Assembly (NCBI GenBank): GCA_964610975.1
Contig: CAZSYN010000002.1
Location: forward strand, 216,076 to 280,075
Reading direction: 5' to 3'
Length of the DNA: 64,000 nt
Origin: an uncultured Phycisphaeraceae bacterium
GTDB taxonomy: Bacteria; Planctomycetota; Phycisphaerae; WQYP01
Shown: one piece after another, positions 19,056 to 63,597 of the stretch
How the letters are laid out: each line of letters opens with the position of its first letter
Position numbering within the stretch: position 1 is the stretch's first letter
Notes under the pieces: generated by a model
The model's database searches: none
What the model saw: the letters and a program-made list of their open reading frames with translations, nothing else
What the model was told of the DNA's origin: nothing
Position numbers and translations under genes: made by a program

Positions 19056-19076
19056 CACTGATGTGACAACCGCGAC

Positions 19077-25216: not shown

Positions 25217-25612
25217 TTACTCGATCGTGGCCAGCAATTCACCACCGACGTTTTCCTGGCGCGCCTTGCGATCAGACATCACGCCGCGCGAGGTGGAGAG
25301 AATCGCCACGCCCAGACCCTGAATGATCTTCGGGAGGTTGTTCACGTCACGGTAGACGCGGCAACCGGGCTTGCTTACGCGCTTGATCTCGCGGATCACG
25401 CGCTCGCCGGCCGGGGTGTATTTGATGGTCAGGCGGATCAGGCCCTGCTTGGTGCCGTCATCCAGCACAGCAAAGTCCGTCACATAACCTTCATCCTTGA
25501 GCACCTGGGCAATGCCCTGGCAGATCTTGGAATTTTTCACGTCCACCGTTTTATGCTTCGCACCAACAGCGTTGCGAAGACGGGTGAGCATGTCAGCAAT
25601 CGTATCGCTCAT
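25217..25612 (-). CDS. rpsH: 30S ribosomal protein S8
   Basis: MSDTIADMLTRLRNA... Confidence 0.9.
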   Translation of the reverse strand: MSDTIADMLTRLRNAVGAKHKTVDVKNSKICQGIAQVLKDEGYVTDFAVLDDGTKQGLIRLTIKYTPAGERVIREIKRVSKPGCRVYRDVNNLPKIIQGLGVAILSTSRGVMSDRKARQENVGGELLATIE

Positions 25613-25718
25613 AGTATCCTCGGGAAGTCGTCAAAAGTTTAGCAGGCTAAACGGGCTTATCTGGTTAAGCATCATTTTCGCTTAACACGGACCTCGTTTA
25701 ACTTGGTCCCTGTCTTGT

Positions 25719-25988
25719 TTACCAGCTCGATTTTTTCAGACCCGGAATCAGACCCTTGTGGCCCAGTTCGCGGAGCATGATACGGCTGATTTTGAACTTG
25801 CGGTAATATCCGCGGCGGCGACCAGTCAGCTCGCAACGACGAGCCAGACGGGTGATGCTTGAATCGCGCGGAAGCTTGGCAAGAGCCGCCCAATTCTTCT
25901 CAGCCTTGAGTTGCCGACGCTTTTCAGCGTACTTTTCAATCAGCGCGAGCCGTTTCTGATACCGATTTTTCCATGCCGTCGTCGCCAT
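25719..25988 (-). CDS. rpsN: 30S ribosomal protein S14
   Basis: [13 protein letters not shown]...LPRDSS...[11 protein letters not shown]. Start placed at the internal Met of the track ORF, by alignment to S14. Confidence 0.85.
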
Positions 25989-26048
25989 AGAATCCTCAAT
26001 TATGAGCCTGATCCGCAATGACATCGCAAATCAGGCACTTTCTTGAAC

Positions 26049-26831
26049 TTAACCAGCCTTCTTTACTTCATCCACACGGAACGGCATGCCCAGCGCCTTC
26101 AGAAGCGCGCGGCTGTTAACATCGTTGCCGCCGGTCATCTGAATGGTGATGTTCATACCCTGATGGAATGTCAGGGCTGCCGTATCCACTTCCGGGAACA
26201 CTGACTGTTCAGTCAGGCCCATTGAATAGTTGCCGCGGCCGTCAAAACCCTTGGGGTTCAGACCACGGAAGTCTTTGACACGCGGAATCGCCAGGTTGAT
26301 CAGACGATCAAGAAATTCCCACATGCGCTGGCCGCGCAGGGTAACCTTGGCGCCGATCTCCATGCCTTCACGCAGTTTAAAGTTTGACACGCTCTTGCGA
26401 GCCTTGCAAACCACGGCCTTCTGGCCGGCGATCAGGGTCAGATCCTTAAGGGCTGCTTCAAGACGCGGCTTTTCAGCAATCGCCTTGCCCAAACCCATCG
26501 AAATCACAATCTTGTCGATACGCGGGACAGCCAGCAGGTTGTCGAGCTTAAGCTCTGTCTCAAGCTGCGGAACGACTTTCTCAACGTAGGCCTTCTGAAG
26601 ACGCGGCTTATAGCCGGCTGGGAAAGCGGCAGGACCAGCCGCTTCTTCTTTGCCCTTGCGGCCTTTGGCCTTCGGAGCTTCTTCAGCGGCGGCTTCTTCG
26701 CCCTTGCCTTCTTTGGCTTTGGCGGCCATCTCAGCCTTCTTGGCAGCTTTGGCAGCCTTTTCGGCTTCAATCTGCTCAGCCGACTTGGCCGGCTTCTTCT
26801 CTTGTTTCTTATCTTCTTTGTCTTTGGCCAT
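26049..26831 (-). CDS. rplE: 50S ribosomal protein L5 with ~80-aa Lys/Ala/Glu-rich N-terminal extension
   Basis: The conserved L5 core starts about 85 residues into the ORF (...PRIDKIVISMGLGKA...RGQRMWEFLDRL...FDGRGNYSMGLTEQ). Start chosen at MAKDKEDKK, which is preceded by aaGGAGAgcc. There is no later in-frame Met closer than 40 aa before the core. Confidence 0.85.
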   Translation of the reverse strand: MAKDKEDKKQEKKPAKSAEQIEAEKAAKAAKKAEMAAKAKEGKGEEAAAEEAPKAKGRKGKEEAAGPAAFPAGYKPRLQKAYVEKVVPQLETELKLDNLLAVPRIDKIVISMGLGKAIAEKPRLEAALKDLTLIAGQKAVVCKARKSVSNFKLREGMEIGAKVTLRGQRMWEFLDRLINLAIPRVKDFRGLNPKGFDGRGNYSMGLTEQSVFPEVDTAALTFHQGMNITIQMTGGNDVNSRALLKALGMPFRVDEVKKAG

Positions 26832-26903
26832 TGCTGGCTCTCCTTTATGCCGCCCCAAGCTGTTCTTGGTTACGGTGTGCGCCGCTTAAGCAGCGTAAAT
26901 CAG

Positions 26904-27233
26904 TTACTTCTTGGCGATCACGCCCAGGTCTGAACCGGTCTTGGCGGCCACGCGGTGCTTGGCACCCTCAATCACGGCAGACTTCACGCGGCAGCCTTTA
27001 TTGGTCTTGGGATCGATCGGCTGAACCTTGCAGGCCTGAATCCAAGCTTCGCGCTGGATGCGGCTGCCTTTGGGGTTCTGCTGGGTCGGCTTGAGGTGTT
27101 TCCATTGAACGGCCACACCTTCAATTTTGACCTTGCCGTTTTTCGGATCAATGGCAATAACCTTGCCGGTCTTGCCCTTGTCATCGCCCGAGCGAACGAA
27201 GACCATGTCATCTTTTTTGATACGCGATGCCAT
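26904..27233 (-). CDS. rplX: 50S ribosomal protein L24
   Basis: MASRIKKDDMVFVRSGDDKGKTGKVIAI is the KOW motif. Confidence 0.9.
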   Translation of the reverse strand: MASRIKKDDMVFVRSGDDKGKTGKVIAIDPKNGKVKIEGVAVQWKHLKPTQQNPKGSRIQREAWIQACKVQPIDPKTNKGCRVKSAVIEGAKHRVAAKTGSDLGVIAKK

Positions 27234-27281
27234 TTTTTATTCCTCACATCACGGTGCTTTTCAGCGCCGCTGCTTATCCTT

Positions 27282-27668
27282 TTAGACCACTTCGCTGGCC
27301 AGGGAGACGATCTTCATGAAATTCTTTTCACGCAGTTCACGGGCGACCGCGCCGAAGATGCGCGTGCCTTTGGGGTTACCGTCGCCGTCGACGATCACGC
27401 AGGCGTTACGGTCAAAGCGCACATAGGAACCGTCCGAGCGGCGGGTCGTCTGCTTGGTGCGGACGATCACGGCCTTCTGAACGTCGTGAAGCTTGACATC
27501 GCCATTGGGAGCAGCCGTCTTGACGGCAATCACGATCAGATCGCCGATGGCGGCGACTTTACGCTTAAACTTGCCGCGGGCGGTTGAACCACCGAGCACC
27601 TTGATGCACATGCAGGTCTTGGCGCCGGTGTTGTCGGCAACGTCGAGTCTGGTTTGCTGTTGAATCAT
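27282..27668 (-). CDS. rplN: 50S ribosomal protein L14
   Basis: [17 protein letters not shown]... Confidence 0.9.
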
Positions 27669-27762
27669 ATTCCACCTAAAGGCTAAATTCTGAATGCTGA
27701 AGGCTAAAAGGGCTGACTCGTTGTTCTCAGCCTTTAGCCTTTATCCTTCAGCCTTAGCGTCC

Positions 27763-28134
27763 TTATTCCTTAGCTGGCTCAGCCGCGGGAGCCGCTTCTT
27801 CCTTCTTCTTCTCAAACATCTGCGAGGCTTCGCCTTGCAGGATGCTGGTATCGATCTGCTGCGCCTTGATGACCACGCGCACCAGACGGTAGCACTTGGT
27901 CTTGCTGATCGGGCGGCAGCTCATCACTTCCACCTGATCGCCAAGACGCGACTCATTCTTTTCATCATGCACATGAAGCACGGTCTGGCGCTTCACGTAC
28001 TTGTTGTACTTTGAGTGCTTTGAGAGGTACTCAAAGACAACCTTGCGGGTCTTGTTGACTTTATCGCTTACGACGACCCCGATCATACGGGGGCGAAGCT
28101 TGCGTTTGCTCTTTTCTGTCGCAGCAGTGGTCAT
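27763..28134 (-). CDS. rpsQ: 30S ribosomal protein S17 (with N- and C-terminal extensions)
   Basis: GVVVSDKVNKTRKVV...KLHVHDEKNE...CRPISKTKCYRLVRVV. Confidence 0.85.
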   Translation of the reverse strand: MTTAATEKSKRKLRPRMIGVVVSDKVNKTRKVVFEYLSKHSKYNKYVKRQTVLHVHDEKNESRLGDQVEVMSCRPISKTKCYRLVRVVIKAQQIDTSILQGEASQMFEKKKEEAAPAAEPAKE

Positions 28135-28199
28135 TGTTCAGCGTCCAGTTTCAGTGTTCTTATCCCAGACAGGCCAAAGCCTGTCGCATTTCCCTGTTA

Positions 28200-28406
28200 T
28201 TACTTCTTGGCAGCGATTTGACGCTGCTTGAGAATCGTGTTGATGCGAGCGATATCTTTTCTCGCTTCGCGCGCCACGTTCGGTTTGGGCTTTTCCTGAT
28301 TCTGCGCGGTGCGCAGATCAAAAACCTTGCGGCGCAGTTCGGCTTCTTTTTCCTTGAGCGTCGCGTCGTCGAGCTTTTTGAGTTCATCCAAAGCCATGTC
28401 ATTCAT
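28200..28406 (-). CDS. rpmC: 50S ribosomal protein L29
   Basis: LKKLDDATLKEKEAELRRKVFDLRTAQ. The overlapping 28160-28402 ORF in another frame is judged spurious. Confidence 0.85.
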   Translation of the reverse strand: MNDMALDELKKLDDATLKEKEAELRRKVFDLRTAQNQEKPKPNVAREARKDIARINTILKQRQIAAKK

Positions 28407-28451
28407 CCTATCAATTCGGGGTCTTAATCAAGACCGCCAGCATTAACAATC

Positions 28452-28871
28452 TTAGAGCGTGTGACGACGGGCCACGAAACGGCAACGGACCGGCATCTTG
28501 TAAGCCACACGGGTAAACGCGCGCTTGGCGACACCTTCATCCACACCGGCGATCTCAAAGAGAATCGTGCCGGGCTTGACTTCGGCTGCCCAGAACTCCG
28601 GTTCACCCTTACCGGTACCCTGACGAGTTTCCAGCGGCTTCTTGGAGAAGCTCTTGTGCGGGAAGATCCGGATGTAGACCTTGCCTTCGCGAGCCAGGAA
28701 GTGTGAGCAGGCCATACGACCGGCTTCCAACTGGCGGCCGGTGATGCGGCCCGGCTCAAGCGCCTGAATGGCGTACTCGCCGAAGCTGACCTTGTTACCG
28801 CGCGTGGCGTTGCCACGCATTACACCGCGTTGCTGCTTGCGCCACTTGACTCGTGATGGCATCAGTGCCAT
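28452..28871 (-). CDS. rplP: 50S ribosomal protein L16
   Basis: MPSRVKWRKQQRG...ALEPGRITGRQLEAGRMA. Confidence 0.9.
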   Translation of the reverse strand: MALMPSRVKWRKQQRGVMRGNATRGNKVSFGEYAIQALEPGRITGRQLEAGRMACSHFLAREGKVYIRIFPHKSFSKKPLETRQGTGKGEPEFWAAEVKPGTILFEIAGVDEGVAKRAFTRVAYKMPVRCRFVARRHTL

Positions 28872-28973
28872 GTGTGTTACTCCGTACCAGAGTGAGCCGG
28901 ATACCGGCCCGACTCAGAAACTCTCAATAACCCTAACCAACTCGCCAGCCGGAGGCTGACGCATCCGATCACC

Positions 28974-29669
28974 TTACCGGCGACGCGGACGACGGGGACG
29001 ACTGGCCTGTTCAGCGGCCAGGGCTTCCAGTTCGGCATACAGGCCGCGGAAGATCCAGACCTTGATGCCGATGACGCCGTAAGGCGTGCGGCAGTGAACC
29101 TGGCCGAAGCTGATGTCCGCCTGCAACGTGTGCAGCGGAATCGAGCCGACGATCATTTTTTCAACACGGGCGATTTCAGCGCCGCCGATACGGCCGGAGA
29201 GCTGAATCTTGATACCCTTAGCGCCGGCGTTCTTGGCCGCGTCAGCTTTCTGCTTGAGGACGCGACGGAAAGAAGCGCGCTTCTTGAGCTGCTCAGCGAT
29301 ACCTTCGGCGATCAACTGGGCATTGGCGTCGGGGTTGCCGATTTCGGCGATCTCAACTTTGACCTTGCGGCCAGTGAGGTCTTCGATTTCGTTGCGGAGC
29401 TTGTCGACTTCCGCGCCCTTGGGGCCGATCACCACGCCCGGACGAGCGGTGTGAAGGACAACCTTCAGCTCTTCGCGGGTGCGTTCAATCTCAACTTTGG
29501 CAATGGCCGCATAAGGCGGATTGCGGTTGAGCTTGCCATCCACAAAATCCCGGATCTTCTGGTCTTCGACCAGCAGCTCGCCATAAAGTTTCTTAGGAGC
29601 AAACCAACGGCTGTTCCAGCCTTCGGTGATGCCAACCCGGAATCCATTTGGATGAACTTTCTGACCCAT
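28974..29669 (-). CDS. rpsC: 30S ribosomal protein S3
   Basis: MGQKVHPNGFRVGITEGWNSRWFA; KH domain; Arg/Pro-rich C-terminal tail. Confidence 0.9.
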   Translation of the reverse strand: MGQKVHPNGFRVGITEGWNSRWFAPKKLYGELLVEDQKIRDFVDGKLNRNPPYAAIAKVEIERTREELKVVLHTARPGVVIGPKGAEVDKLRNEIEDLTGRKVKVEIAEIGNPDANAQLIAEGIAEQLKKRASFRRVLKQKADAAKNAGAKGIKIQLSGRIGGAEIARVEKMIVGSIPLHTLQADISFGQVHCRTPYGVIGIKVWIFRGLYAELEALAAEQASRPRRPRRR

Positions 29670-29678
29670 GTGATCCTC

Positions 29679-30080
29679 TTATTTCTGTTCAGCCGCCGGA
29701 GCAGCTTCAGTCTTAGCTTTACCCTGCTTCTTGCTCTTCTTGGTTTCGCCCTTGCCTTCATCAACTTCAATAGTGATGTGGCAGGTGCGCTTTTTGATTT
29801 CGTAAGCCTTTCCACGATCCTTCGGCTGAAAACGCTTCATGATCGGGCCGTCATCACAGAAAGCCTTCGAGACAACCAGAGTCTCAACATCCGCTTCCTG
29901 AGCGTCGGCATTGGCGATGGCGCTCTTGAGCACTTTGCTCACCATGACCGCCGCGCGCTTTTTGTTGAAACGCAGCAGGTCCAGCGCCACGTCGACGGGC
30001 TTATTCTGAATCAGATCGGTCACCAGACGCGCCTTGCGAGCGCTGATCCGTGCGAACCGCCATTTGCTGGTAAATGCCAT
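29679..30080 (-). CDS. rplV: 50S ribosomal protein L22 (Lys-rich C-terminal extension)
   Basis: ARKARLVTDLIQNKPVDVALDLLRFNKKRAAVMVSKVLKSAIANA. Confidence 0.9.
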   Translation of the reverse strand: MAFTSKWRFARISARKARLVTDLIQNKPVDVALDLLRFNKKRAAVMVSKVLKSAIANADAQEADVETLVVSKAFCDDGPIMKRFQPKDRGKAYEIKKRTCHITIEVDEGKGETKKSKKQGKAKTEAAPAAEQK

Positions 30081-30144
30081 ATCTTTAGTCCTTGGTCAAC
30101 TGGTCTGAGCCATCAGGCCCTGTACCGTTATTACTGAGCCGCTG

Positions 30145-30426
30145 TTACTTGGCAGCCACTTCTTTGGCAACCGCCGTGTGACCCTTGAACACGCGGGTCG
30201 GGGCAAACTCGCCGAGCTTGTGGCCAACCATGTCTTCAGTCACGAACACCTTGACGAAACCCTTGCCGTTATGCACGTCAAACGTGTGGCCAACAAAGTC
30301 CGGAATGATCGTGCTCGAGCGCGACCATGTTTTGATGGCCGATTTGGCATGACGCTCATTAAGAGCTTCAACCTTCTTGAGCAGGTGCTCCGCGACGAAC
30401 GGGCCCTTTTTAGTGCTGCGACTCAT
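30145..30426 (-). CDS. rpsS: 30S ribosomal protein S19
   Basis: [11 protein letters not shown]...[16 protein letters not shown]. Start chosen at the internal Met. Confidence 0.85.
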
Positions 30427-30567
30427 GTCTTTCCTCTTGTTCCGTTGACTCACTCATTCCTGCATTGGCCTGAGCGGTTTTAACGTTTTTATCTTTTTAT
30501 CATCCTGAGTCCGCTTGCTGATCAACCGGACTCGCCAAGCCTTTTAAAGCTCGCACAAACCGTCATA

Positions 30568-31434
30568 TTATTTACGCTTCAGCAGTGATTCGCCGTAACG
30601 AACCGTCATGCGGCGACGAATAATCTTGCTGCTGGAGTTCTTACGCGGATTACGGGTCTTGCCGCCCTTAGCCGGCACGCCCCACTTGCTGACTGGGTGA
30701 CGACCGCCACCGGAACGACCTTCACCACCACCGAGCGGATGGCTGACCGGGTTCTGAGCCACGCCACGAACCGTCGGGCGGATGCCACGATGACGGGTGC
30801 GGCCGGCCTTGCCCCAGCGGACGTTGATCCAGTCAATATTGCCAAGCTGGCCGATGGTTGCGCGGCACTTCCAGTTGATCTGGCGGATTTCGCCGGAGGG
30901 CAACTGAATGGTGGCAAAGCCCTGATCTTTACCGATCAGACGGGCCACGCCGCCGGCGCTGCGGCAAAGCTTGCCGCCCTGGCCAGGGATGACTTCAACA
31001 TTATGAATTTCAAGACCGACCGGCATGACTTCGAGAGTCATTGTATAGCCGGGGGCTTTTTCAACATCAGATTTGACGGAAGACATGACCGTGTCGCCGA
31101 CCTTGAGGGCCTGCGGAGCAAGAATGTAGCTCTTGACGCCGTCATCATATTTGATCAGAGCGATAAAGACCGAGCGGTTCGGATCATATTCAATCGCTTC
31201 GACTTTGGCAGCCACGTCATCTTTGACGCGCTTGAAATCAACCTTGCGGTACATCTGCTTGTTACCGCCGCCGATATGACGGCAGGTGATCCAGCCGGTA
31301 TGGTTACGGCCGCCGGTTTTCACCTTCTTTTCAAGCAGGGATTTTTCCGGCTTGGTCTTGGTGATTTCGGCGTAAGCGTTCACCGAGCTGTTGCGGCGGG
31401 CTGCGGTGGTCGGTTTATAAATCTTAATTGCCAT
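30568..31434 (-). CDS. rplB: 50S ribosomal protein L2
   Basis: 288 aa. ...GRNHTGWITCRHIGGGNKQMYR...GRTRHRGIRPTVRGVAQNPVSHPLGGGEGRSGGGRHPVS. Confidence 0.9.
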   Translation of the reverse strand: MAIKIYKPTTAARRNSSVNAYAEITKTKPEKSLLEKKVKTGGRNHTGWITCRHIGGGNKQMYRKVDFKRVKDDVAAKVEAIEYDPNRSVFIALIKYDDGVKSYILAPQALKVGDTVMSSVKSDVEKAPGYTMTLEVMPVGLEIHNVEVIPGQGGKLCRSAGGVARLIGKDQGFATIQLPSGEIRQINWKCRATIGQLGNIDWINVRWGKAGRTRHRGIRPTVRGVAQNPVSHPLGGGEGRSGGGRHPVSKWGVPAKGGKTRNPRKNSSSKIIRRRMTVRYGESLLKRK

Positions 31435-31473
31435 GACTTTTAAGTCCTGCGTCTTGAGTTCAGAGTCTCGAGC

Positions 31474-31764
31474 TTAGAACAGGTCAATCTTGCTCTGTTC
31501 ATTCAACTTGACAACGGCCTTTTTCCATTCGGTCGGAGTTGAGAAGCCCTTCTTGGTGCGATGAGCTTTGCCCAGCACGCGGATCGTGCGGACATCTTCA
31601 ACCTTGACCTTATAGAGCTCTTCCACGGCTTTTTTGATCTGGGTCTTGTCGGCCGCGCGATCAACTTCAAACGTGTAGGAGTTCCGGCTGTTAGCAGCCC
31701 AGGTGCTCTTTTCAGAGATCAGCGGGCGCTTGATGATTTCAGTTGACTTCAGTTCCAGTGCCAT
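31474..31764 (-). CDS. rplW: 50S ribosomal protein L23
   Basis: IIKRPLISEKSTWAANSRNSYTFEVDRAADKTQIKKAVEELYKVKV. Confidence 0.9.
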   Translation of the reverse strand: MALELKSTEIIKRPLISEKSTWAANSRNSYTFEVDRAADKTQIKKAVEELYKVKVEDVRTIRVLGKAHRTKKGFSTPTEWKKAVVKLNEQSKIDLF

Positions 31765-31817
31765 AATTTCACTCGTCTATAAGCCGATGGCCTTGACCAT
31801 CAGTCAGGTTAACCTTC

Positions 31818-32465
31818 TCAGGCCTCAACTTTCACTTTGCTGGGTTTGGCTGTCTTGAGAACATCTTCAAAGGCCGCCTTTGTGATCACCATGGTGCGCT
31901 TGGTCAGCACGTCGTAAGCGCTGATTTCGCGAGCCGGCTTGATGGCCGTCTTGGTGATGTTGCGGGATGAGAGAACCAGGTTCTTATCAAGGCCGTTGGT
32001 TGCGATAAGCACCGAACGATTGGCGTTAAGAGCCTTGAGAACCTTGGCAACTTCTTTTGTCTTGGGGGCCGAAACGGCCAGGTTATCGAGAACCTTGAGG
32101 TTGTTGGAGAGGATCTTGGCGAGGATCGCGTTGTTGCGGGCAAGGCGACGCTGCTGAAGAGGCATATCCTGACGGAAATCACGCGGACGCTTGGCGAAGG
32201 CCATGCCGCCGCCCTTCATCACGTTCGTGCGAATGTTACCGCGACGCGCGTTACCGGTATGCTTCTGGCCATAGAGCTTCTTGGTTGAGCCTTCGATTTC
32301 AGCGCGCGAACGCGTGCGAACCGTGCCCTGACGATTGTTGGCATGATACATCACCAACGCCTGCTTGAGCAGCGCGGGACGAACCTGCTCGCCCAGGAGA
32401 ACTTCATCCACCTGGAGCTTGCCAACTTCCTGGCCTTCGATATTGAGAATCGGGACTTCGATCAT
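31818..32465 (-). CDS. rplD: 50S ribosomal protein L4
   Basis: ...GTVRTRSRAEIEGSTKKLYGQKHTGNARRG... Confidence 0.9.
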   Translation of the reverse strand: MIEVPILNIEGQEVGKLQVDEVLLGEQVRPALLKQALVMYHANNRQGTVRTRSRAEIEGSTKKLYGQKHTGNARRGNIRTNVMKGGGMAFAKRPRDFRQDMPLQQRRLARNNAILAKILSNNLKVLDNLAVSAPKTKEVAKVLKALNANRSVLIATNGLDKNLVLSSRNITKTAIKPAREISAYDVLTKRTMVITKAAFEDVLKTAKPSKVKVEA

Positions 32466-32635
32466 GGATTCTACTCGGAATATGAAGCGTAGCTTTGAAC
32501 AACCTGGTTTTTAACAACCCGCGTCGTCATCACATCGCCTGTCTTACCGAGTCTCCTTTCAACCAGTTCTCTTGTTAGTCTTTTTGGCGGCCGCTTGTGA
32601 CGGCCGCATCAAAATTCACGTTATCAGCATCACAC

Positions 32636-33319
32636 TCAGGCATTCTTGGTCGTCTTGGCTTTCTTGACGAAAACCAGCGAGCCGTTGTAGCCCGGAACCG
32701 TACCCTTGATCAGCAGCAGATTCTTTTCTTTATCCACGCCGACGAGAGCGAGATTCTTGGCAGTGATCTGCTCGTCACCATAGTGACCAGCCATCTTTTT
32801 GCCCTTCTTGATCGTGCGGCCGTGGCCACGGGTAGCAGTACCGCCACCGATACCACCGGGCGAACGATGCTTACGTTCAGTACCGTGCGAAGCCGGCTGG
32901 CCGCCGAAGTTCCAGCGAACCATAACGCCCTGGAAACCGCGGCCTTTGGTGCGGCCAACAACGTCCACAAACTTGATGCCTTCAAATGTTGAGACATCCA
33001 CCGTGCTGCCGGCGGCCACCGACGGCTTATCCGTCAGGCGGACTTCATGAAAGAAGCGCTTGGCAGTCGTCTGTCCGGTCTTTTTGCAGTGACCGACAAC
33101 AGGCTTGCTCTGGCGGCGTTCTTTAATGTCTTCAAAGCCGAGCTGAACGGCGTTATAGCCGTCTTTGCCGTCGGCCGTTTTGACCTGGGTGACCACGCAG
33201 GGACCAGCCTGAACGACAGTGACCGGGATGATGACGCCATTGGCATCATAAACACGGGTCATGCCGACCTTGCGGCCCAGAAGCGCGGCAATAGAAATTC
33301 CGTTACCATTTTCGCTCAT
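32636..33319 (-). CDS. rplC: 50S ribosomal protein L3
   Basis: ...KVGMTRVYDANG...TKGRGFQGVMVRWNFGGQPASHG... It is first in the cluster here. No rpsJ (S10) gene lies upstream; a ~340-nt leader follows. Confidence 0.9.
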   Translation of the reverse strand: MSENGNGISIAALLGRKVGMTRVYDANGVIIPVTVVQAGPCVVTQVKTADGKDGYNAVQLGFEDIKERRQSKPVVGHCKKTGQTTAKRFFHEVRLTDKPSVAAGSTVDVSTFEGIKFVDVVGRTKGRGFQGVMVRWNFGGQPASHGTERKHRSPGGIGGGTATRGHGRTIKKGKKMAGHYGDEQITAKNLALVGVDKEKNLLLIKGTVPGYNGSLVFVKKAKTTKNA

Positions 33320-33845
33320 GGCATTCCTCGCTCCACGTCATACCTCATCTGAACCCGTTTCCCCGGCGAAGGGGTGTCAGGTTCACCGCGATATCCCGTC
33401 TGGCCGATTTCGGCAGCTCACAAAGCGGCCGACACTTACCAGATTCTCGATCCGGGACCCGTAATTGGCGATTACCTTTCGGAGATCGTACTGAGCGGTG
33501 GTGCCGCAAGTCGCATGCTGGCATAAAGCCAATCAGGACTTATTTCAGACGATCCTCGCCGTTCTTGGCCCGGCCGGGATCACTCAGGTTGGGCTTACGT
33601 GGAAAACATTCGTTTTCATTTATGCCCTGCGGCTTGCGCCGCCCTTGCCGACTAAGTTAAAAGCCTATGAATAAGCCTTCAATCAGGGGCAAGACGGAGA
33701 AGTGTAACAGAACCTGCCTGACACGTCAAGCGAAAGTGCAGTTACCCCAAGTTTTACGCGTTTTGGGATTATGGGACGAAGGAATTGCGGCTAAAATGAA
33801 GGCTTATTTGATTGCATATGACTATCAGAAGTCTGTGTTGCCTAT

Positions 33846-53610: not shown

Positions 53611-53901
53611 CTCAGACTCATGACCAGAATGGCCGGCAGGTCTTATATTATCATCACAGAATGAGTGGCATTGCGGATGAGATGAGCCAAAGAAAAAGCG
53701 GCCAAAATATTGCTCAATTCAGCCATTTTTGGTTGGCATTATCTCAGAAACAGTGTAAATAATACTTGTAATTTCTGCGAGCAACTCGTTTAACAACCTG
53801 CCGTCAATGTATGTAGTGGGTATCAGGGGAGAAGGCCAAAAGAAGGACTGAGCGCGACCAACAAAGCCGGCGCAGGTACTCTTTTGGTAATTGAGTGGGA
53901 T

Positions 53902-54801
53902 TATATGCGTAAGCGGATTTTTTCGTTGTTGGCATTCGGGGCACTGGCGGCAATCTCAACATCAGCAGGCGCGTCCACAATACGAACGGATAAGGCGGAT
54001 AGCCTGTATACGACGCTGGCCACGCTGCCGGAATATTCAGGCGTCGGCAAAGTTATTCATTCAACAGCAATTGGTTCAGGGACGCTCATCTCGTCGCAAT
54101 GGGTGCTCACAGCAGCGCACATGGTGAAGGATAAATCCGCGCTGCAATTTGTACTTGGCGGAACCACATATACCGCCGATTATTCTACGTACTATTCCGG
54201 ATATGACACCAGCAATTATTATGGCGATCTGGCGCTTGTTCATATCAGTTCCGCCATCTCCGGCGTTACCTACGCAACCTTATATTCCGGCACAACCAGC
54301 GACCTTGTAAGCAATCACCAGACAGCGACGTATGTGGGTTACGGTTATAACGGCACCGGCACATCCGGATTTACCACGAATACTTACGGTACAAAACGAG
54401 CTTTTCAAAATAAAATTGATGAGATCGCTTCAGATTACATCAGTACGTGGCCCGCTAACGATCTTTTGAGTGATTTTGATTCTCCCGGCGGCGCCAAAAC
54501 GCACATTGGTGATGGAGAACCGCTATCACTTGAAGGAAATATCGCGCCGGGCGACAGCGGCGGCGGCGTGTTCGTCAATATTGGCGGCACAACGTACCTG
54601 GCCGGCGTTATTTCTCTGCTGGGCTCAACAGATGGCACTAAAAATGCCAACTATGGTGATTTTTCAATGTCCGTCAGCGTGACGGATTTTTCTTCATGGA
54701 TTTACTCCACCATGTCCGCTTATGAGGCAACTATTCCCGAGCCGGCCAGCATGTCCCTGCTGCTCTCCGGCGGACTTTGGCTGCTTAAACGGCGCAAATA
54801 A
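53902..54801 (+). CDS. secreted trypsin-like (S1 family) serine protease with PEP-CTERM anchor
   Basis: Signal peptide MRKRIFSLLAFGALAAISTSAGAS. WVLTAAHMV (His site). GDSGGGVF (Ser site). C-terminal IPEPASMSLLLSGGLWLLKRRK. Confidence 0.75.
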   Translation, partial: YMRKRIFSLLAFGALAAISTSAGASTIRTDKADSLYTTLATLPEYSGVGKVIHSTAIGSGTLISSQWVLTAAHMVKDKSALQFVLGGTTYTADYSTYYSGYDTSNYYGDLALVHISSAISGVTYATLYSGTTSDLVSNHQTATYVGYGYNGTGTSGFTTNTYGTKRAFQNKIDEIASDYISTWPANDLLSDFDSPGGAKTHIGDGEPLSLEGNIAPGDSGGGVFVNIGGTTYLAGVISLLGSTDGTKNANYGDFSMSVSVTDFSSWIYSTMSAYEATIPEPASMSLLLSGGLWLLKRRK

Positions 54802-55166: not shown

Positions 55167-55529
55167 TTGAACATGTCAGATCATTACCGCCATCGCGGAC
55201 CAAGCGAGGGCTTTATTTGCCGCCACTGTGGCCGCGGCGTTAATCCGTGCCAGTATGGCTCTCAGCATCGTAATCACTGTCCGTATTGCCTCTGGAGTCT
55301 TCACGTGGATGATGCGCCGGGCGACCGAGCCTCGCACTGCAAAGGCAGCATGCAGCCGCTGGCCGTGTGGGTACGCCAAGACGGAGAATGGGCCATTATT
55401 CATCGTTGCGCTTCGTGCGGATGTCTGAAAAGCAACCGCATCGCCGGCGATGACGACCCGTGGGCGCTCATGGCGCTGGCCGCGCAAGCCATCAGCCGCC
55501 CCCCGTTCCCCATCACGATGCCACAGTAA
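55167..55529 (+). CDS. RNHCP-domain protein (Cys-rich, function unknown)
   Basis: FICRHCGRGV...QHRNHCPYCLWSLHVDD...HRCASCGC: the literal RNHCP motif plus three Cys pairs. Confidence 0.6.
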   Translation: MNMSDHYRHRGPSEGFICRHCGRGVNPCQYGSQHRNHCPYCLWSLHVDDAPGDRASHCKGSMQPLAVWVRQDGEWAIIHRCASCGCLKSNRIAGDDDPWALMALAAQAISRPPFPITMPQ

Positions 55530-57406: not shown

Positions 57407-58255
57407 TTAGCGAACCGGCAGCGCAAAAACGTCGGCCACGATGTTGGCCATGCGCTGCGCGCCAAGATTTGATAAATGCAGTCCGTCAACAGTGGTGGCC
57501 TTGCCAAGAAAGACGAAAGACATGCGGTGCTTGGGAATCAGAGGGATATTGTATTTGAGCGCCAACTTGCGCTGAGCATTGCCGATGCCCGCATCCCAGG
57601 GATAAAGCGGTAACTCAAACATAACTACAGGATGCCCACTGAGTTGCGAAATCAACTGATCAAGATCACGGTAAAACAAGTCAGGATTCTGGCCATCAAG
57701 CAGATCGTTGCCGCCAATCTCAAGGAGCACCCAGTCATTGTTCTTCGGAATGCGCTGAACCTGCGGAAGCGCTGTGCGAAGCGTAGCCCCGGCAACAGCA
57801 TAATTATTCACAATGATGCGGCGTTGTTTTTCAAGCAGATCCGGCCAACGCACGTCGCCGATGCCGGCCGTCAGAGAATCGCCAACGATATACACTTGAT
57901 CCGGAGCGGCCGCTAACCGCGGAGTGCGCCACCAGTAGGCTTCCGCGGCCAAAAAAGTAACGGTCATCATCAGCACAATAATGTGAGCAATCTTCTGAAT
58001 GCGGATTATTCTGTCTGCCGGAAGATGCGTCATGATGAGCCAAAATACGATGACAAGTATAGCAACGATCAGGCGCGGCCGATCAATCGGCGTACCGGAA
58101 AGCACAATCAAGGTTAGCGCCAGGAACACAATAATATTGGTAACGATACGAAAACGCTTTGGCCAAAGCATGCGCACAAGCACAGCCAGAATAAGCAAAG
58201 CACCGCCACAATAAAGACTTAATCCGCTGGCGAAAAGCATCAAGAACGGGTTCAT
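57407..58255 (-). CDS. SGNH/GDSL hydrolase-family protein with N-terminal membrane anchor
   Basis: Four N-terminal TM helices, then VYIVGDSLTAGIGD (GDSL block I) and the ...GGNDLL... block. Confidence 0.6.
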   Translation of the reverse strand: MNPFLMLFASGLSLYCGGALLILAVLVRMLWPKRFRIVTNIIVFLALTLIVLSGTPIDRPRLIVAILVIVFWLIMTHLPADRIIRIQKIAHIIVLMMTVTFLAAEAYWWRTPRLAAAPDQVYIVGDSLTAGIGDVRWPDLLEKQRRIIVNNYAVAGATLRTALPQVQRIPKNNDWVLLEIGGNDLLDGQNPDLFYRDLDQLISQLSGHPVVMFELPLYPWDAGIGNAQRKLALKYNIPLIPKHRMSFVFLGKATTVDGLHLSNLGAQRMANIVADVFALPVR

Positions 58256-58267: not shown

Positions 58268-61261
58268 TTAATTATCACGCATACTGCGCGTCAATTGAGT
58301 AAGAACGGCCGCGGCATCCTGGGCTGTGGCATACTTGCCAACCCTGATGCCGGCACGCAGTTCATCAATGGCCACAGGAAGGTCTTTTAACTTCTCGGTC
58401 ATGGCGAGAAATTCATCAGGCAACACTCCGCCGTGATCCTTTGTGCGAAAATCAAGCAGCCAGCGGCCCTTGCGCAACACCATCTGCATTCCGCTGCCGT
58501 TGGCAATAGTGGCGATATCACCATCAATTTGCCACTGCATGGCAGAAAGAGATATCACATCACGCGCAATGGTGCTGGTAAATGCACTTTGTGATTCATC
58601 TTTGCCAAAACGTTTTTCAGATTCACGATTGAGCAACTCAATGGCAACAATCAATCTCGCTATCACATCCGCCGCTTTCTGCTCAGCGACATCACCAGCA
58701 GTGACGTATAGGGCGGCCTTAACCGCGTCAACATCTTTTTTGCGGGCATCCTCGTATATCATCGCCAAAGAACCGACCGGCGTTTTGGGATCTGGCGCAA
58801 CAGAAGGAGACGATGCGGGTATGTTCTTCTTTGCAGGAATCGTGGACGGTTGAGGCGGAGCAACATTTGCGGGTTGCGCAGCGGGCGTATTGCGCATGGC
58901 CGCAGCAGGGGCGGCTTTGCCAGTGGCCAGCGAAACGGGCGCACGCGCAGGGATTGTGGCCGGGACAGGCGTATTGGGCGTTACTTTCAGGTTGTCAAAA
59001 GAGACCCACACACGCGGCCGCGACCAGAGTTCAAGCTTGTCAACTTCTTTCCACTGCACGGATGACCAGCATTGCAGATTATCATTACCGCCGCGATCAG
59101 GACCCTCCGCGCTGATAACCGGACGCGGCGCGCCGAGCATCGGCATCACGCGGCCATTTTTTAACTTGAGGACAAAATAATACTCCACGTTCTCGCGATA
59201 AGGGCACTGCGTCCACAAGCTGACGTTATTGGTGGCGCCAAATGACGTGCTTAACCGCAGGTCTACGTCGCCGATGCGCTGTTTTTCACGGGTGCGCTCT
59301 ACTTCACCGATCAGTTGCCCTTCTCCGCCATCAACGCCGACGCGGATGCGGGGACTGTTCAGGTTTACTTCATATGAAATTTGCGACCAGTTATCCGTAT
59401 TGTTATACGAACTGTTGCCGCGATTGCCGCGGCTGAAATTATCGTTGTTGCGGTTGCGATTTTTGGCATCCTGCGTGGCCGGCGGAATTTTAGGCGCACT
59501 GGCCTCAACAAGCACGCAGAAAGTACCGGAACCATTGCTCATATACCGCTCCGGCGGAACACCGCGAAGCGGATCACCCTGTGGATCCCACCAGCATAGC
59601 GCGCCCATATCGCTGCGCGAAATGGCCAGCACGCGAACGGTCACATCGCCGGCGGTCTTTTCCCACTCAGGCAGACCGGGTTTGTTGGTCATGAATGTTT
59701 TTTGCGCCTTACTTTCCCACGCCAGTGCGCGGTCGGCCACCCACCGGGCGGCATCAGGGCCGTATGTGGCCCAATTCCATCGTGAAATTTCACTGAGAGA
59801 CTGCATCACGCGTGCCTCGGGCATCGTGGCGCCGAAAGGCTCAAGCACCATGATCAGCACAAGCGACAGGTCATCCACGCGCACCGTGTCGCTGATCATC
59901 AGCAGAACATCCTGCTGGGCCAACTGCGTTTTGAGCTTGATGTCGCCGCGAAATTCCGCATTCGTGCGATACGGTTCACCAAGATACGCCCTGCCGTTAT
60001 CAAGTGTGGCGTTAATATTAAGCGCCAACTGGCGATCCGCGTTTGTGGTCAGTTGCGAAGCCTGCCCCTGCGTGCGCCAGTATCCCTGCATCCAGTTGAT
60101 GGGCAGCAGATCGTCGTCATTATCACGGCCGCCCTGCAAATATGGCAGTATATTGTACATATGAGAATTATTTTGTGTGATCTGCACATTGCGCGCCGCA
60201 TAGCCAAGCGCTTCGCGCGCGGGGCCAAACTGAATGGTGCGGACAAAGCGATGCAGATCAACGGCGGGCATGCGGTAAAGCGTGAATTTGCTGCTTTCTG
60301 ATTGCTCCGCACTGCCGATTGCGCGTAATTTATTGGCGGTAAATTCTTCCGTTATAAAAGCATAACCCGCAACATGCAGAGGACTGGCGGCATCCGCCGG
60401 CTGCATGGCCGGCTCAACAAGAATATTTGACGGCAATACAGTTGCCGGCGCCGCCGGCTGAAATGGCGGCGGCGGAATAACCACTTTGCTGGTGTTGCCG
60501 ATCCGGTTGACAACAAAACTTGTGATAATGCCGGCGGCAATAATCAGCACCAACACTGCGGCGGCGCGCCACAACAGGGGAAAACTGGACTGATGTCCCC
60601 AGGACATCAACAATCGCCGCAATGACGGCCTAAATTGCCTTGCCATCTCAGGAGCGGACAATGCCGATGCCACGGCGGATTCCGGCACAGGCAAGCCGGT
60701 TTCGGACAAAATCGCCTGCATCATAGCGTCACGGCCGAGGGCAAGGCCTTTTTTCTCAAGAAGACGATTGAGTTTTTCACACGCACGTGAGGAACGTTTT
60801 TCAAAAGTAGCCGGCGAAATAGCCAGAGCCGAGGCGGCATCAGCAGGCGAGTGTTTTTCAAAAAACGCACGCAACATGATTTCGCGATCACGTTCTCCCA
60901 GCCGCAGCAATGCGCCATCAATCTGCGAACGAAAATCGTTTTTGCATTCCGGCACGGCCGCGGCCGCCGGACGGGGCAGGGATTGCGCATTGCGCCGCTC
61001 TTTTGCCTGATGTTTCAGATGCCGCTGGCAGGCATGGCAAGTGACCTCATGCAGCCAACCGGCAACCGAAATGCGGTCAAGCAGCCGCGAGGCGCGATCC
61101 GCCAGAAGTAGAAAACTGGCGTGCGCAATTTTTTCAGCATCCTGCGGATCAACCTGCCGGCGCGCAGCCTGGTAAATCATGGCCGCGTGTCGCTGAATCA
61201 GTTGTTTTATCGCGGCGGTATCACCTTCAAGATACTGCTGCAAGAGTTGCTGGTCGGTCAT
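58268..61261 (-). CDS. ECF sigma-70 factor fused to a transmembrane segment and a ~740-aa extracytoplasmic domain
   Basis: N-terminus LQQYLEGDTAAIKQLIQRHAAMIYQAARRQV (region 2) and ILRAFFEKHSPADAASALAISPATFEKRSSRACEKLNRLL (region 4). A TM helix follows (AAAVLVLIIAAGIITSFVV). The large C-terminal region has no recognised domain; it contains a Pro/Ala-rich linker. Start chosen at MTDQQLL (61261); the track ORF extends to 61360. Confidence 0.65.
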   Translation of the reverse strand: MTDQQLLQQYLEGDTAAIKQLIQRHAAMIYQAARRQVDPQDAEKIAHASFLLLADRASRLLDRISVAGWLHEVTCHACQRHLKHQAKERRNAQSLPRPAAAAVPECKNDFRSQIDGALLRLGERDREIMLRAFFEKHSPADAASALAISPATFEKRSSRACEKLNRLLEKKGLALGRDAMMQAILSETGLPVPESAVASALSAPEMARQFRPSLRRLLMSWGHQSSFPLLWRAAAVLVLIIAAGIITSFVVNRIGNTSKVVIPPPPFQPAAPATVLPSNILVEPAMQPADAASPLHVAGYAFITEEFTANKLRAIGSAEQSESSKFTLYRMPAVDLHRFVRTIQFGPAREALGYAARNVQITQNNSHMYNILPYLQGGRDNDDDLLPINWMQGYWRTQGQASQLTTNADRQLALNINATLDNGRAYLGEPYRTNAEFRGDIKLKTQLAQQDVLLMISDTVRVDDLSLVLIMVLEPFGATMPEARVMQSLSEISRWNWATYGPDAARWVADRALAWESKAQKTFMTNKPGLPEWEKTAGDVTVRVLAISRSDMGALCWWDPQGDPLRGVPPERYMSNGSGTFCVLVEASAPKIPPATQDAKNRNRNNDNFSRGNRGNSSYNNTDNWSQISYEVNLNSPRIRVGVDGGEGQLIGEVERTREKQRIGDVDLRLSTSFGATNNVSLWTQCPYRENVEYYFVLKLKNGRVMPMLGAPRPVISAEGPDRGGNDNLQCWSSVQWKEVDKLELWSRPRVWVSFDNLKVTPNTPVPATIPARAPVSLATGKAAPAAAMRNTPAAQPANVAPPQPSTIPAKKNIPASSPSVAPDPKTPVGSLAMIYEDARKKDVDAVKAALYVTAGDVAEQKAADVIARLIVAIELLNRESEKRFGKDESQSAFTSTIARDVISLSAMQWQIDGDIATIANGSGMQMVLRKGRWLLDFRTKDHGGVLPDEFLAMTEKLKDLPVAIDELRAGIRVGKYATAQDAAAVLTQLTRSMRDN

Positions 61262-61461
61262 GATGACGGTCTGCCTTTCTGCACTCCGGCCATAATCACG
61301 TGGTGACATCCACAACATCCGCCGATGCACGCACGCAACACATATAGGATATAACGCCACTGAGGCTTATGTATTGACAAGACACGTGGCAGATTTGTAA
61401 ATTTCGCGCCGCTATGAACAGGATAACGCGGCCTATGGCAGACGTGCAAAAAAGTAGAGAA

Positions 61462-61920
61462 TCAATCTGAATTGGGCACAAGAGTCAGCACCCACTGGCC
61501 GGTGCTATCGCCGCCGGCCAGATCCTCCTGATTAACCGTCAGCATGCGCGTGGTGGCAAGAGAACGCGCATTAAATGTATCAACGCCATTTTCGACGATG
61601 CGCTCTTTGCACTCAAAGCTGATTTTACCGGTAAAACGATCCGCATCTGCTTGCTTAAACATCCCGGAGACCGTCACTTGCAGAGCGCCATACTGAATTT
61701 GCGAATAAAAAGGAATCCCCGGAATAAGCCCCACATGCATGGCTGTGACAGGCTCCTTTTCCGCGGTTGCCGGAGCAGTGGTTGCGGCCGCAGTTGCCGG
61801 CCGCCAGACGATATGCAGGACGTAATCCGGCTTGGCATCATGATCGCCGGCGGCATACACCGTCAGCGCGGCAATCCCGATGAGCAAAATTCCCAGTACC
61901 GGCATAAAGCGAAAATACAT
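61462..61920 (-). CDS. hypothetical secreted protein
   Basis: Signal/anchor MYFRFMPVLGILLIGIAALTVYA. About 150 aa. No recognised motif. Confidence 0.4.
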   Translation of the reverse strand: MYFRFMPVLGILLIGIAALTVYAAGDHDAKPDYVLHIVWRPATAAATTAPATAEKEPVTAMHVGLIPGIPFYSQIQYGALQVTVSGMFKQADADRFTGKISFECKERIVENGVDTFNARSLATTRMLTVNQEDLAGGDSTGQWVLTLVPNSD

Positions 61921-62131
61921 GACATGCTCCGAATATGATCCTGTTATCTTTAAATTGACAGGCATAATCACTTTACGTTAGTTGCGATGAATCACAATAG
62001 GCCCGCCAAAAACAATTTCAGAAGTTATAATGCGTCAGCAAGTGCCATAAGTTTGGGGCCATGCTACAATTCAGCAAGTGGATATGCGAAAATCACCTCA
62101 TCTCGGAATGCGGATGACAGAGGTCTTTTGT

Positions 62132-62680
62132 ATGCTGAAATTTCTGCCGGAGAAATATCGCAGCCTGCTTAAATCGCGGCCGGTCATTTATTCCGCCATT
62201 CTGATTTTTCTTGCCCTGATGACATTCTGCTTCAGCGTGGTCCGCTCAGCGCATTTTGACTGGAATGCACGCGATGTGAGCGAATTACAGATTCAACAGT
62301 TCGCCGTTTATGACAACGTAAGCCGGCCGCAACGCATCCTGAGCATTCAGGATGAATCACTGATCAGCGATATCCTGGGCAGCATTGAAAAATTACAGCC
62401 GCAACAGGCGCCGCGCGAACCGGCAGCAGGCAAAATCATCATTCTACGATTTCGCAGACAATCAGATAACCAGTGGAGCGCATATCAGTTGATGATAATC
62501 CCGGAAAAGCAGGACCAGGGTAAAAAACGCAAGGAATATATCGTATCACTGCTGCGCGATGCCGCATGGTTTGAGCTGGGAGATTATGACGGACCGGAAT
62601 TGGGAGAACTGCTTGATGCCACCGTTGCGCCGCCGCGGCCGGCAATGCCAAAACCAGCCGGCGCATCCCAGAAAAAATAA
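62132..62680 (+). CDS. hypothetical membrane-anchored protein
   Basis: Start MLKFLPEKYR is preceded by gacAGAGGtc. One TM helix (VIYSAILIFLALMTFCFSVV). Acidic C-terminal region. Confidence 0.4.
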   Translation: MLKFLPEKYRSLLKSRPVIYSAILIFLALMTFCFSVVRSAHFDWNARDVSELQIQQFAVYDNVSRPQRILSIQDESLISDILGSIEKLQPQQAPREPAAGKIIILRFRRQSDNQWSAYQLMIIPEKQDQGKKRKEYIVSLLRDAAWFELGDYDGPELGELLDATVAPPRPAMPKPAGASQKK

Positions 62681-62703
62681 GCCACACTCAAATACTCACG
62701 AAT

Positions 62704-63597
62704 TTACTGCGCACGCGCTTCGGGCTGAAAATCACCTTCAATCCGCGGACGGTGAATGACGTAATCAAGATTACTCAACTCAACAAAAACACAGGCGCTG
62801 CGGTCATCACGCCGCAAGGAAGACTGAATCGTAATCACAGGAATGGCCCAGCAGCGGGTTTTGAGTTCACCTGATTCAGAAACACCCGGACGCCATGCCT
62901 GAAAATCAAAATTCATACGGATGCTACGGCTGATTTTAACATCAAGAATCGCCGCGCTGCCCAGCGGCGTAAGCGTAACGGGCATGCTGGCGTCTTTACC
63001 GACGTCAATTGAGAATTTCTGCCACTTGCTCACCGGCGATTGCAGGCGCGTCCACTGTGGCCCCAGCGTTGTGTCATTCAGCTCATAGGCGCCGTATACA
63101 TAAATTTCCGCCTGCTTCTGCAATGCAATTTTATTCTGCGCCTCCTCAATCAGCGCCGGTATAGTGGCGATCCGCTCGCGGGTAATGCGATCTGATTGAG
63201 CGTCAATGGCCTTTTTGGCCAGCTTTAACAGTGCGCTTTCCGTGGTATTTTTAGATGCCAGAAATTCCGCCGCGGCCATACGCGCCTGCTGCGCCTGGCT
63301 ATTGATCACTTTTTTAATGGCCTGCTGAACGGCACCGTCATCGTAACGCGGCTCACTGTTAAAAAATGTTGTAAATAAATACTCAAAATCCTGATCGCGG
63401 ACGCTGAGTTGATAGCTCAATGTCGCGCTGCCGATTTGCCTGGCCGGCGAAGCGGCCTGCGCCATCAGCGGGGCAGGCCTACTCAACATACAAAATAAAG
63501 CGCCAAGCGCGATTCCCGCTTTTATGCGTATGTTGCGGGCACAATGACATGCCGCTTTATGATGAATCAACATGGCCGGCCTCTCAATTTTGTTCAA
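62704..63597 (-). CDS. hypothetical secreted protein
   Basis: Signal peptide ...GIALGALFCMLSRPAPLMAQA. 297 aa. No recognised motif. Confidence 0.4.
   Translation of the reverse strand: MNKIERPAMLIHHKAACHCARNIRIKAGIALGALFCMLSRPAPLMAQAASPARQIGSATLSYQLSVRDQDFEYLFTTFFNSEPRYDDGAVQQAIKKVINSQAQQARMAAAEFLASKNTTESALLKLAKKAIDAQSDRITRERIATIPALIEEAQNKIALQKQAEIYVYGAYELNDTTLGPQWTRLQSPVSKWQKFSIDVGKDASMPVTLTPLGSAAILDVKISRSIRMNFDFQAWRPGVSESGELKTRCWAIPVITIQSSLRRDDRSACVFVELSNLDYVIHRPRIEGDFQPEARAQ

Follow-up and report, generated by a model that had tools for sequence, protein, structure and literature searches.

A planctomycetal ECF sigma factor joined through one predicted membrane helix to a conserved two-module outside extension

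Sigma factors of the extracytoplasmic function (ECF) type that carry fused extensions are seen as one-component systems among sigma factors, and a single Planctomycetes genome holds dozens of them. Fused C-terminal extensions are carried by nineteen ECF groups (PMC7826278). Transmembrane (TM) extensions have been described for ECF48, ECF52, ECF53 and IutY (PMC8999054), and a planctomycetal ECF clade bears very diverse extensions, of which it is openly debated whether they represent function or accident (PMC7671368). Here we describe a protein of this kind, encoded on the minus strand of a stretch of 64,000 nucleotides (hereafter the window; contig CAZSYN010000002.1 of assembly GCA_964610975.1, positions 216,076 to 280,075) from an uncultured Phycisphaeraceae bacterium. 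It joins an N-terminal ECF sigma core, one predicted membrane helix and a C-terminal region of 746 residues, which consists of two conserved modules, here called A and B.

The closest described systems come from the same phylum. Long-extension sigma factors of Planctomycetes were entered as ECF01-Gob in the 2012 planctomycete classification and as ECF57 in ECF classification 2.0. Both have an additional C-terminal domain, with WD40-like repeats in ECF57 (PMC5766207, PMC8999054), and in ECF57 proteins regions 2 and 4 each contain a conserved cysteine (PMC8999054). The window protein shares with them the phylum, the sigma core with the segment that follows region 4 and the TM helix, and the presence of a large, variable outside extension (PMC7671368, PMC8999054, PMC5766207). 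The nature of the extension differs: theirs are WD40/beta-propeller, CarboxypepD_reg, HEAT, prenyltransferase-like or DUF1559, whereas here modules A and B are present and the sigma domain belongs to a separate cluster. A cysteine is found in the region-2.4 helix of many sigma factors with modules A or B (C75 and C78 in the window protein), and C161, the region-4 cysteine of the window protein, lacks conservation in the family.

IutY of Pseudomonas putida (ECF243) is the sole fused TM case studied experimentally; Prc and RseP process it, and truncation makes it constitutively active (PMC8999054). It too is one chain composed of an N-terminal ECF sigma factor, one TM helix and a periplasmic C-terminal domain, but it comes from another phylum, its outside domain is unrelated, and it works in iron signalling with a FecR-type anti-sigma domain and a TonB-dependent receptor. 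The window protein has no FecR domain, and no such receptor is encoded in the window. Proteolytic activation has been predicted for ECF48, ECF52 and ECF53 (PMC8999054), in which the sigma factor is likewise fused to a TM extension; one of them, SCO4117 of Streptomyces coelicolor, has a proline-rich region and an outside binding domain (PMC8999054). These groups differ by a zinc-finger (ZAS-like) domain before the membrane and by extensions of up to about 400 residues, whereas the window protein lacks a ZAS motif and continues for about 825 residues after region 4. In the classical RpoE-RseA system an outside signal also controls a cytoplasmic ECF sigma factor across the membrane, through site-1 and site-2 proteolysis (PMC7826278), but here sensor, anchor and sigma factor would reside in one chain and no separate anti-sigma gene is adjacent. 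A further likeness leads to the BlaR1/MecR1 transducers, since module A also occurs C-terminal to Peptidase_M56 in two planctomycetal proteins described below; the window protein itself has no PF05569 match, and its output would be a sigma factor where BlaR1/MecR1 have a zinc protease that acts on a repressor.

Judged from sequence, the design is therefore one already known in Planctomycetota, an ECF sigma factor with a transmembrane C-terminal extension. The protein differs by an extension made of two conserved modules undescribed in any curated library, and by the lack of a recognisable anti-sigma domain.

The gene, its sigma core and its membrane helix

In the list of open reading frames (ORFs) of the window, minus-strand ORF 58268..61360 is uninterrupted over 1030 codons counted from GTG. 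The calculated chance of a stop-free run of about 1000 codons at the base composition of the window is about 1e-18. Two upstream starts compete with the ATG at 61261, namely the ATG at 61309 (1013 residues; NCBI/Logan gene call, P0001) and the start at 61360. We prefer 61261 to 61309 because most homologues open with 'MTDxELL', which aligns exactly at this ATG in the family alignment. All residue numbers refer to the protein of 997 residues that starts there (Table 1).

An earlier reading of the DNA, made from the sequence only (the sequence-only reading), had described the product as a single-polypeptide ECF sigma factor with one helix and a large extracytoplasmic part, and had pointed to 60.6-60.8 kb as the place where a frameshift of sequencing or assembly might have fused a sigma gene to a downstream gene. 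Two independent Logan assemblies of different runs (SRR9860463 and SRR9674393) and the NCBI record all carry the same DNA at this locus (100% identity, 0 mismatches, 0 gaps), and the protein is identical to P0001, which is present in both NCBI and Logan. The order of sigma domain, helix and extension, with the helix at an equal position, recurs in distant homologues from many samples. That such an artefact linked a normal sigma gene to one for a secreted protein is very unlikely, and the gene is real, joining an ECF sigma factor, one membrane helix and a large outside domain.

Table 1. Coordinates of the features of the sigma gene and of the adjacent upstream gene in the window
Feature	Position	Strand	Residues	Remarks
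Complete gene: ECF sigma, linker, TM helix, module A, Pro/Ala linker, module B	58268..61261	(-)	997 aa + stop	
Sigma region 2	61001..61213	(-)	~17-87	divergent
Sigma region 4	60746..60925	(-)	~113-172	PF08281 and family alignment
Cytoplasmic juxtamembrane linker	60578..60745	(-)	173-228 (56 aa)	
Single TM helix, LLWRAAAVLVLIIAAGIITSFVV	60509..60577	(-)	229-251	hydropathy; predicted N-in, C-out
Module A	58997..60379	(-)	~295-755 (homology ~260-775)	phmmer, alignment A1, AlphaFold2 model
CWWD motif, C-W-W-D-P-Q-G-D-P-L	59567..59596	(-)	556-565	most conserved part of module A; family pattern CWWDxDGxPV
Asn/Arg-rich low-complexity insertion in module A	59387..59476	(-)	~596-625	read from sequence
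Pro/Ala-rich disordered linker between modules A and B	58805..58948	(-)	~772-819	composition, pLDDT
Module B	58274..58780	(-)	~828-996	phmmer, architectures, model
Upstream small gene	61462..61971	(-)	152-169 aa	N-terminal membrane anchor; no Pfam match

Region 4 is recognised by PF08281 (Sigma70_r4_2; 28.6 bits against a cutoff of 25.7, residues 113-164), and the whole-core model TIGR02937 (sigma70-ECF) covers residues 17-167 with 44.5 bits against a cutoff of 42.9. Region 2 reaches 14.5 bits with PF04542 (Sigma70_r2; residues 21-87), under the cutoff of 24, yet it can be aligned column by column with about 20 family members, and the members aligned with this sigma core carry PF04542, PF04545 and PF08281 in their own products. 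It reads 'AEKIAHASFLLLA' in the window protein versus 'AEDVTQAVFLLLA' in the family. The suggestion that regions 2 and 4 both lie within the first ~210 residues was thus borne out by profiles for region 4 and for the core as a whole; for region 2, the family alignment speaks for it and the Pfam score does not. The two regions are spaced by about 25 residues, and a Pfam scan of the protein gave no match to Sigma70_r1 or Sigma70_r3 at E<=0.1. Only regions 2 and 4 would be present, as in the ECF (group 4) sigma-70 family, with regions 1.1 and 3 absent.

Region 4 is followed by a segment with the clade-wide pattern '(R/K)(R/K)G..(L/V)S....L..E.A..AAP..L'. This pattern was obtained from an alignment of 24 N-termini that includes proteins with WD40, CarboxypepD_reg, HEAT or DUF1559 extensions, and in it the segment, like the TM helix, is homologous whatever the type of extension. 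The exchangeable part of these proteins therefore appears to begin after the helix, and tethering to be built into the clade. For the same reason we rejected the notion that the helix stems from a signal peptide brought along by a captured secreted-protein gene. The linker between region 4 and the helix (residues 173-228) gave no Pfam or NCBIfam match of any kind, including zf-HC2, RskA and FecR at E<=0.1, and no HxxxCxxC motif was found in it. The alternative wording of the sequence-only reading, a fusion of sigma and anti-sigma factor, accordingly finds no counterpart in these 56 residues.

Only one strongly hydrophobic segment is present in the protein, at residues 229-251 (maximum 2.75 of the Kyte-Doolittle 19-residue mean). 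Five arginines stand in the flank before the helix versus one arginine and one lysine after it, and because the arginine-rich flank precedes the helix, the N-terminus is predicted to lie inside and the C-terminus outside. The strongest hydrophobic peak of the sigma-bearing homologues starts at residues 215-250 (first residue of the best 19-residue window); P0031, whose sole listed peak is at 168, is the exception. Homologous proteins that consist of A and B, of A only or of B only begin with classical signal peptides. Because the same modules follow signal peptides elsewhere, the 746-residue C-terminal region is almost certainly extracytoplasmic. The description of the product as one polypeptide with an ECF sigma factor, one helix and a large extracytoplasmic part is in this way supported by the single ORF, the profile matches, the hydropathy and the secreted versions of the modules.

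Modules A and B, their distribution and their predicted folds

When residues 256-997 were compared exhaustively by phmmer with 1.84 billion representatives, 63 relatives came to light, which define module A of about 500 residues and module B of about 170 residues. The best matches to module A were P0014 (1.4e-75), P0015 (2e-62) and P0016 (6.7e-58). The modules occur in several architectures. About 12 proteins are composed of sigma domain, TM helix, A and B, and about 5 of sigma domain, TM helix and A. In two complete proteins, P0018 and P0056, the sigma domain and TM helix are followed by B as the sole extracytoplasmic domain. About 10 proteins consist of a signal peptide and A, with or without B, and more than 20 are small proteins (~200-260 residues) with a signal peptide and B. 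The roughly 20 representatives with a sigma-TM-A(-B) architecture are pairwise less than 50% identical.

The same region had at one point looked like an orphan. A word-index search with the full protein returned relatives of the sigma domain only, nearly all of them long planctomycetal proteins with other extensions (WD40, CarboxypepD_reg, HEAT, prenyltransferase-like, DUF1559), and a word-index search with a 16-sequence profile returned the query alone, probably because low-complexity linkers swamped the candidate list. Orphan status was rejected as an artefact of word-index sensitivity, given the 63 relatives found by exhaustive HMMER search. The sequence-only reading had seen no recognisable domain in this region. 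That is correct as far as curated libraries go: neither Pfam nor NCBIfam matches the 746 residues, Pfam matches none of the 16 aligned C-terminal regions of alignment A1, WD40 or beta-propeller Pfam matches are found neither in the window protein nor in these 16 regions, and no PDB sequence matches the A1 profile. The region is nevertheless neither featureless nor an orphan, as it belongs to a conserved two-module family of Planctomycetota.

Module A is characterised by the motifs VWEAF, W..GP...R..A..A..W, CWWDxDGxP and W.R.R.WVTF (alignments A1 and A2), and module B by 'DP.TP.GA...A...GD...VR'. Residues W497, G501, W515, C556, W558, G562, G646 and R748 of module A are invariant in the 16 sequences of A1, where columns C301, W303 and G307 form the invariant part of the CWWD motif. 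C556 is the single invariant cysteine across A1; it is located in the extracytoplasmic part and has neither an invariant partner cysteine nor an invariant histidine. Its role may be redox, metal binding, an intermolecular disulfide or structural.

AlphaFold2 with alignment A1 produced a model of the C-terminal region with a mean predicted local distance difference test score (pLDDT) of 73.5, a predicted TM-score (pTM) of 0.59 and long stretches above 85; the model built from the single sequence was useless (pLDDT 32.6). Module A is modelled as an alpha/beta domain, in which three helices accompany a large sheet, followed by a small beta domain with the CWWD motif and by a beta-sandwich region, and module B as mainly helical with a four-stranded sheet. 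Both modules are thus predicted to fold as domains. Values below 50 occur at residues 338-353 of the C-terminal domain, which overlap the Asn/Arg-rich insertion, and at its residues 517-564, which correspond to the Pro/Ala linker (26% Ala, 24% Pro). A Foldseek comparison of the C-terminal domain, which had been proposed as a check, was run on this model. Queried as a whole multi-domain chain, which lowers sensitivity, the model matched nothing in PDB at E<=1e-3 apart from weak, low-probability partial resemblance to Bet v 1/PYR1-like and Ig-like folds above that limit. Against BFVD the best E was 1e-5 with TM-scores <0.1 and root-mean-square deviation ~28 Å, so no credible structural analogue was found.

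The sigma domains closest to that of the window protein are those of the A/B family (124, 110, 87, 84 and 83 bits). The best matches outside the family are proteins of 680-1160 residues from Gemmataceae, Frigoriglobus and Paludisphaera. In a neighbour-joining tree, which is rough and has no support values, sigma domains of the A/B type stand apart from those of WD40, prenyltransferase-like and DUF1559 types, with two exceptions. Because the sigma domains of the A/B family cluster together, sigma factor and extension seem to have evolved together for a long time. Closest of all (124 bits) is the sigma domain of P0018, a protein of 479 residues with sigma domain, TM helix and B only, encoded at 3350-5393 of locus L006 (a Logan SRR9860463 contig, also present as an NCBI contig). 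Its origin in the same sequencing sample, along with the NCBI contig, makes it a probable paralogue within the same genome. The P0018 gene is followed after 13 bp, on the same strand, by a gene for a plain ECF sigma factor of 196 residues.

When species-representative genomes were scanned for back-translated CWWDxDGxP, most of the 47 loci obtained were chance matches and six were true family loci; a pattern derived from alignment A2 found nothing in these genomes, so that the source genome of the window is not one of them. With hidden Markov model (HMM) checks, the scan places module A in Phycisphaerales, Tepidisphaeraceae, Pirellulaceae, Schlesneria and another metagenome-assembled genome (MAG) of Planctomycetota. 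Two of the loci join module A in one ORF to an N-terminal Peptidase_M56/BlaR1 domain: L037 from a Pirellulaceae MAG, 2-3667 (+), and L017 from a Schlesneria MAG, 3-6467 (-), the latter also with beta-propeller and CarboxypepD_reg regions. E-values for M56 are 3.6e-31 and 1.5e-28 and for module A 3.4e-49 and 5.9e-49, respectively. Since module A is coupled to two membrane signalling domains of unrelated kind and is known in a free secreted form as well, these findings support a role as an outside sensor or interaction module. The link to BlaR1-type transducers also speaks for function rather than accident of the extension. Genes for A and B without a sigma domain are arranged in tandem at L012, 933-4921 (a Phycisphaerales chromosome), and at L052, 4284-8000 (a Tepidisphaeraceae MAG). 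Those of L012 look split over several overlapping frames, which could reflect assembly frameshift errors or decaying copies.

The locus thus appears to offer a clean example of a conserved, foldable two-module outside extension that has co-evolved with its sigma factor. It reveals no new principle; the link of module A to BlaR1 and the many free paralogues are its most interesting leads.

Proposed activation and competing explanations

We propose that the window protein is a one-component transmembrane signalling protein, in which a tethered ECF sigma factor is freed by proteolysis upon an outside cue sensed by modules A and B; we give this reading a probability of roughly 0.55. The tether would keep the anchored sigma domain from RNA polymerase, and the conserved segment after region 4 possibly adds to this inhibition. 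Perception of an extracytoplasmic cue by the two modules would lead to trimming of the outside part, a site-2 protease would then cut within the membrane, and the freed sigma domain would bind core RNA polymerase and switch on its regulon. Release through regulated proteolysis is our best guess by analogy, because IutY is processed by Prc and RseP and because similar activation is predicted for ECF48, ECF52 and ECF53.

Several observations weigh against this proposal. The inhibitory element of IutY/ECF52-type fusions seems to be missing from the window protein or to be unrecognisable in it. Region 2 is divergent and stays under the Pfam cutoff, the glutamine of the family motif 'DVTQAVF' is replaced by histidine, and in a leave-one-out test with the family HMM the sigma domain scores 150 bits, third lowest of 19; full sigma activity is consequently not assured. 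Genes for site-1 or site-2 proteases (RseP, Prc or DegS type), a second sigma factor or conserved targets are all lacking from the 64 kb of the window, and the loci of the homologues have no neighbours in common with the window or with each other. When the promoter search that had been suggested for the neighbouring genes was carried out, no ECF-type AAC...CGT motif was found upstream of the sigma gene or its neighbours, nor was any promoter motif common to five homologue loci. No hint of a ligand comes from the predicted fold, as no structural analogue was found. Free A/B modules without a sigma domain occur among unrelated housekeeping genes, and the primary function of the modules may be unrelated to signalling.

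The lack of any recognisable anti-sigma domain or protease-related feature would also suit signalling without release. The sigma domain would stay anchored and become exposed by a conformational change passed through the helix or by oligomerisation driven by A and B, and RNA polymerase would then be recruited to membrane-proximal DNA in the manner of ToxR/CadC-type membrane-bound transcription factors. The clade-wide conserved linker after region 4 could then be the switch element, and planctomycetal extensions of the ECF57 type are filed as 'activated by protein interaction' and not by proteolysis (PMC8999054). A single helix flanked by flexible Ala/Ser/Thr/Gly-rich and Pro/Ala-rich linkers is nevertheless a poor transmitter of conformation, and IutY, the fusion that has been studied, is freed by proteolysis. 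No sigma factor is known to function while tethered to the membrane. We regard activation without release as quite improbable.

It is also conceivable, though unlikely, that the protein is an evolutionary by-product, formed when a sigma unit, after duplication, took up the gene of a secreted A-B protein, and that it now serves mainly as an anchored outside protein with a decaying sigma part. Pinto & da Fonseca 2020 describe such captures in Planctomycetes and call their functionality into question (PMC7671368). Free A-B and B proteins exist, the divergence of region 2 and the low rank of the sigma score would be signs of decay, and the gene is missing in a close relative (L054). Against this, the sigma-TM-A(-B) architecture has been kept in those ~20 strongly diverged representatives, and module A is spread over genomes of Phycisphaerales, Tepidisphaeraceae and Planctomycetia. 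The sigma phylogeny broadly follows the type of extension, the sigma frame is intact and passes the TIGR02937 and PF08281 cutoffs, and the TM helix is part of the conserved sigma unit and not the remnant of a captured gene. These points weigh against a by-product. An elaboration of the proposed release, doubtful at present, is that A and B form a Planctomycetota-specific sensor cassette serving at least two kinds of membrane signalling device, ECF sigma factors and BlaR1-type proteases; the free secreted paralogues, A-B and B-only proteins that sometimes stand in tandem, would act as soluble partners or competitors, and sigma release would be controlled by an outside partner-switch.

Neighbouring genes and the rest of the window

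A GDSL/SGNH hydrolase gene (57407-58255) lies 13 bp downstream of the sigma gene, and three small ORFs with N-terminal hydrophobic segments are found on the other side at 61462-63597. This arrangement had been described correctly from the sequence, to be amended by the opposite strand of the middle ORF (62078-62680). The third gene, at 62704-63597, codes for 289 residues. Relationship of the three small products to modules A and B was considered and rejected by hhalign and phmmer.

The proposal that these neighbours could be the regulon or the sensory partners of the sigma factor finds for the most part no support in L054, where FolC is 91% identical and the sigma gene is absent. The order there is nitroreductase, a 370-residue discoidin-domain protein (opposite strand), membrane GDSL hydrolase and FolC. 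The hydrolase of the window is 46% identical over full length to its L054 orthologue at the same position, and the product of 62078-62680 (+) shares 34% identity with the N-terminal half of the 370-residue protein (3978-5090 (-)), again at the same position. The 370-residue protein ends in an F5/8 type C (discoidin) domain, which the window copy does not have. Because orthologues of both genes hold the same positions in a region without the sigma gene, the hydrolase and 62078-62680 would be backbone genes and not sigma-specific partners; none of the three small genes is seen again beside homologues. For the same reason, an insertion of the sigma gene and the three small genes as one block was rejected, the middle gene being orthologous to a backbone gene. 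What the window has in addition to L054 is the 289-residue gene and the pair formed by the 152-residue gene and the sigma gene. Of all neighbours, only the former member of this pair (61462-61971) lies next to the sigma gene on its strand and is missing along with it in L054; its membership in the sigma system is uncertain.

The genes of two close orthologues share an upstream element although the genes further upstream differ. At L003 (~2040-2103) and L004 (~7940-8000), the regions upstream of P0014 and P0016 have in common 'AATTTyTGTCCGsTTC ... GGTACATT ... GAGGGAT', which may represent a promoter with a ribosome-binding site. The element is absent from the window and from the loci of P0015 and P0018.

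Elsewhere the window contains a cluster for polysaccharide synthesis and export at 524-15162 (Wzy_C, pyruvyl transferase, GT9, CpsB/CapC, Wzz-type tyrosine kinase, sugar transferase, Poly_export), a ribosomal protein operon with SecY, adenylate kinase and methionine aminopeptidase at ~19000-33400, as well as topoisomerase I and methionine genes. It is core chromosome and not a mobile element. FolC of the window shares 72-73% identity with proteins labelled Phycisphaerae or Phycisphaerales bacterium and 60% with its counterpart in Fontivita pretiosa, which places the source among uncultured Phycisphaerae. Scans of the whole stretch against Rfam and for tRNA genes gave no match. An RNHCP-domain protein is encoded at 55167-55529 (+). 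The gene at 53884-54801 (+) codes for a secreted trypsin-like serine protease that ends in a PEP-CTERM sorting signal (IPEPASMSLLLSGGLWLLKRRK); it was not seen in the syntenic region of L054, where a PEP-CTERM protein of 893 residues is encoded nearby instead.

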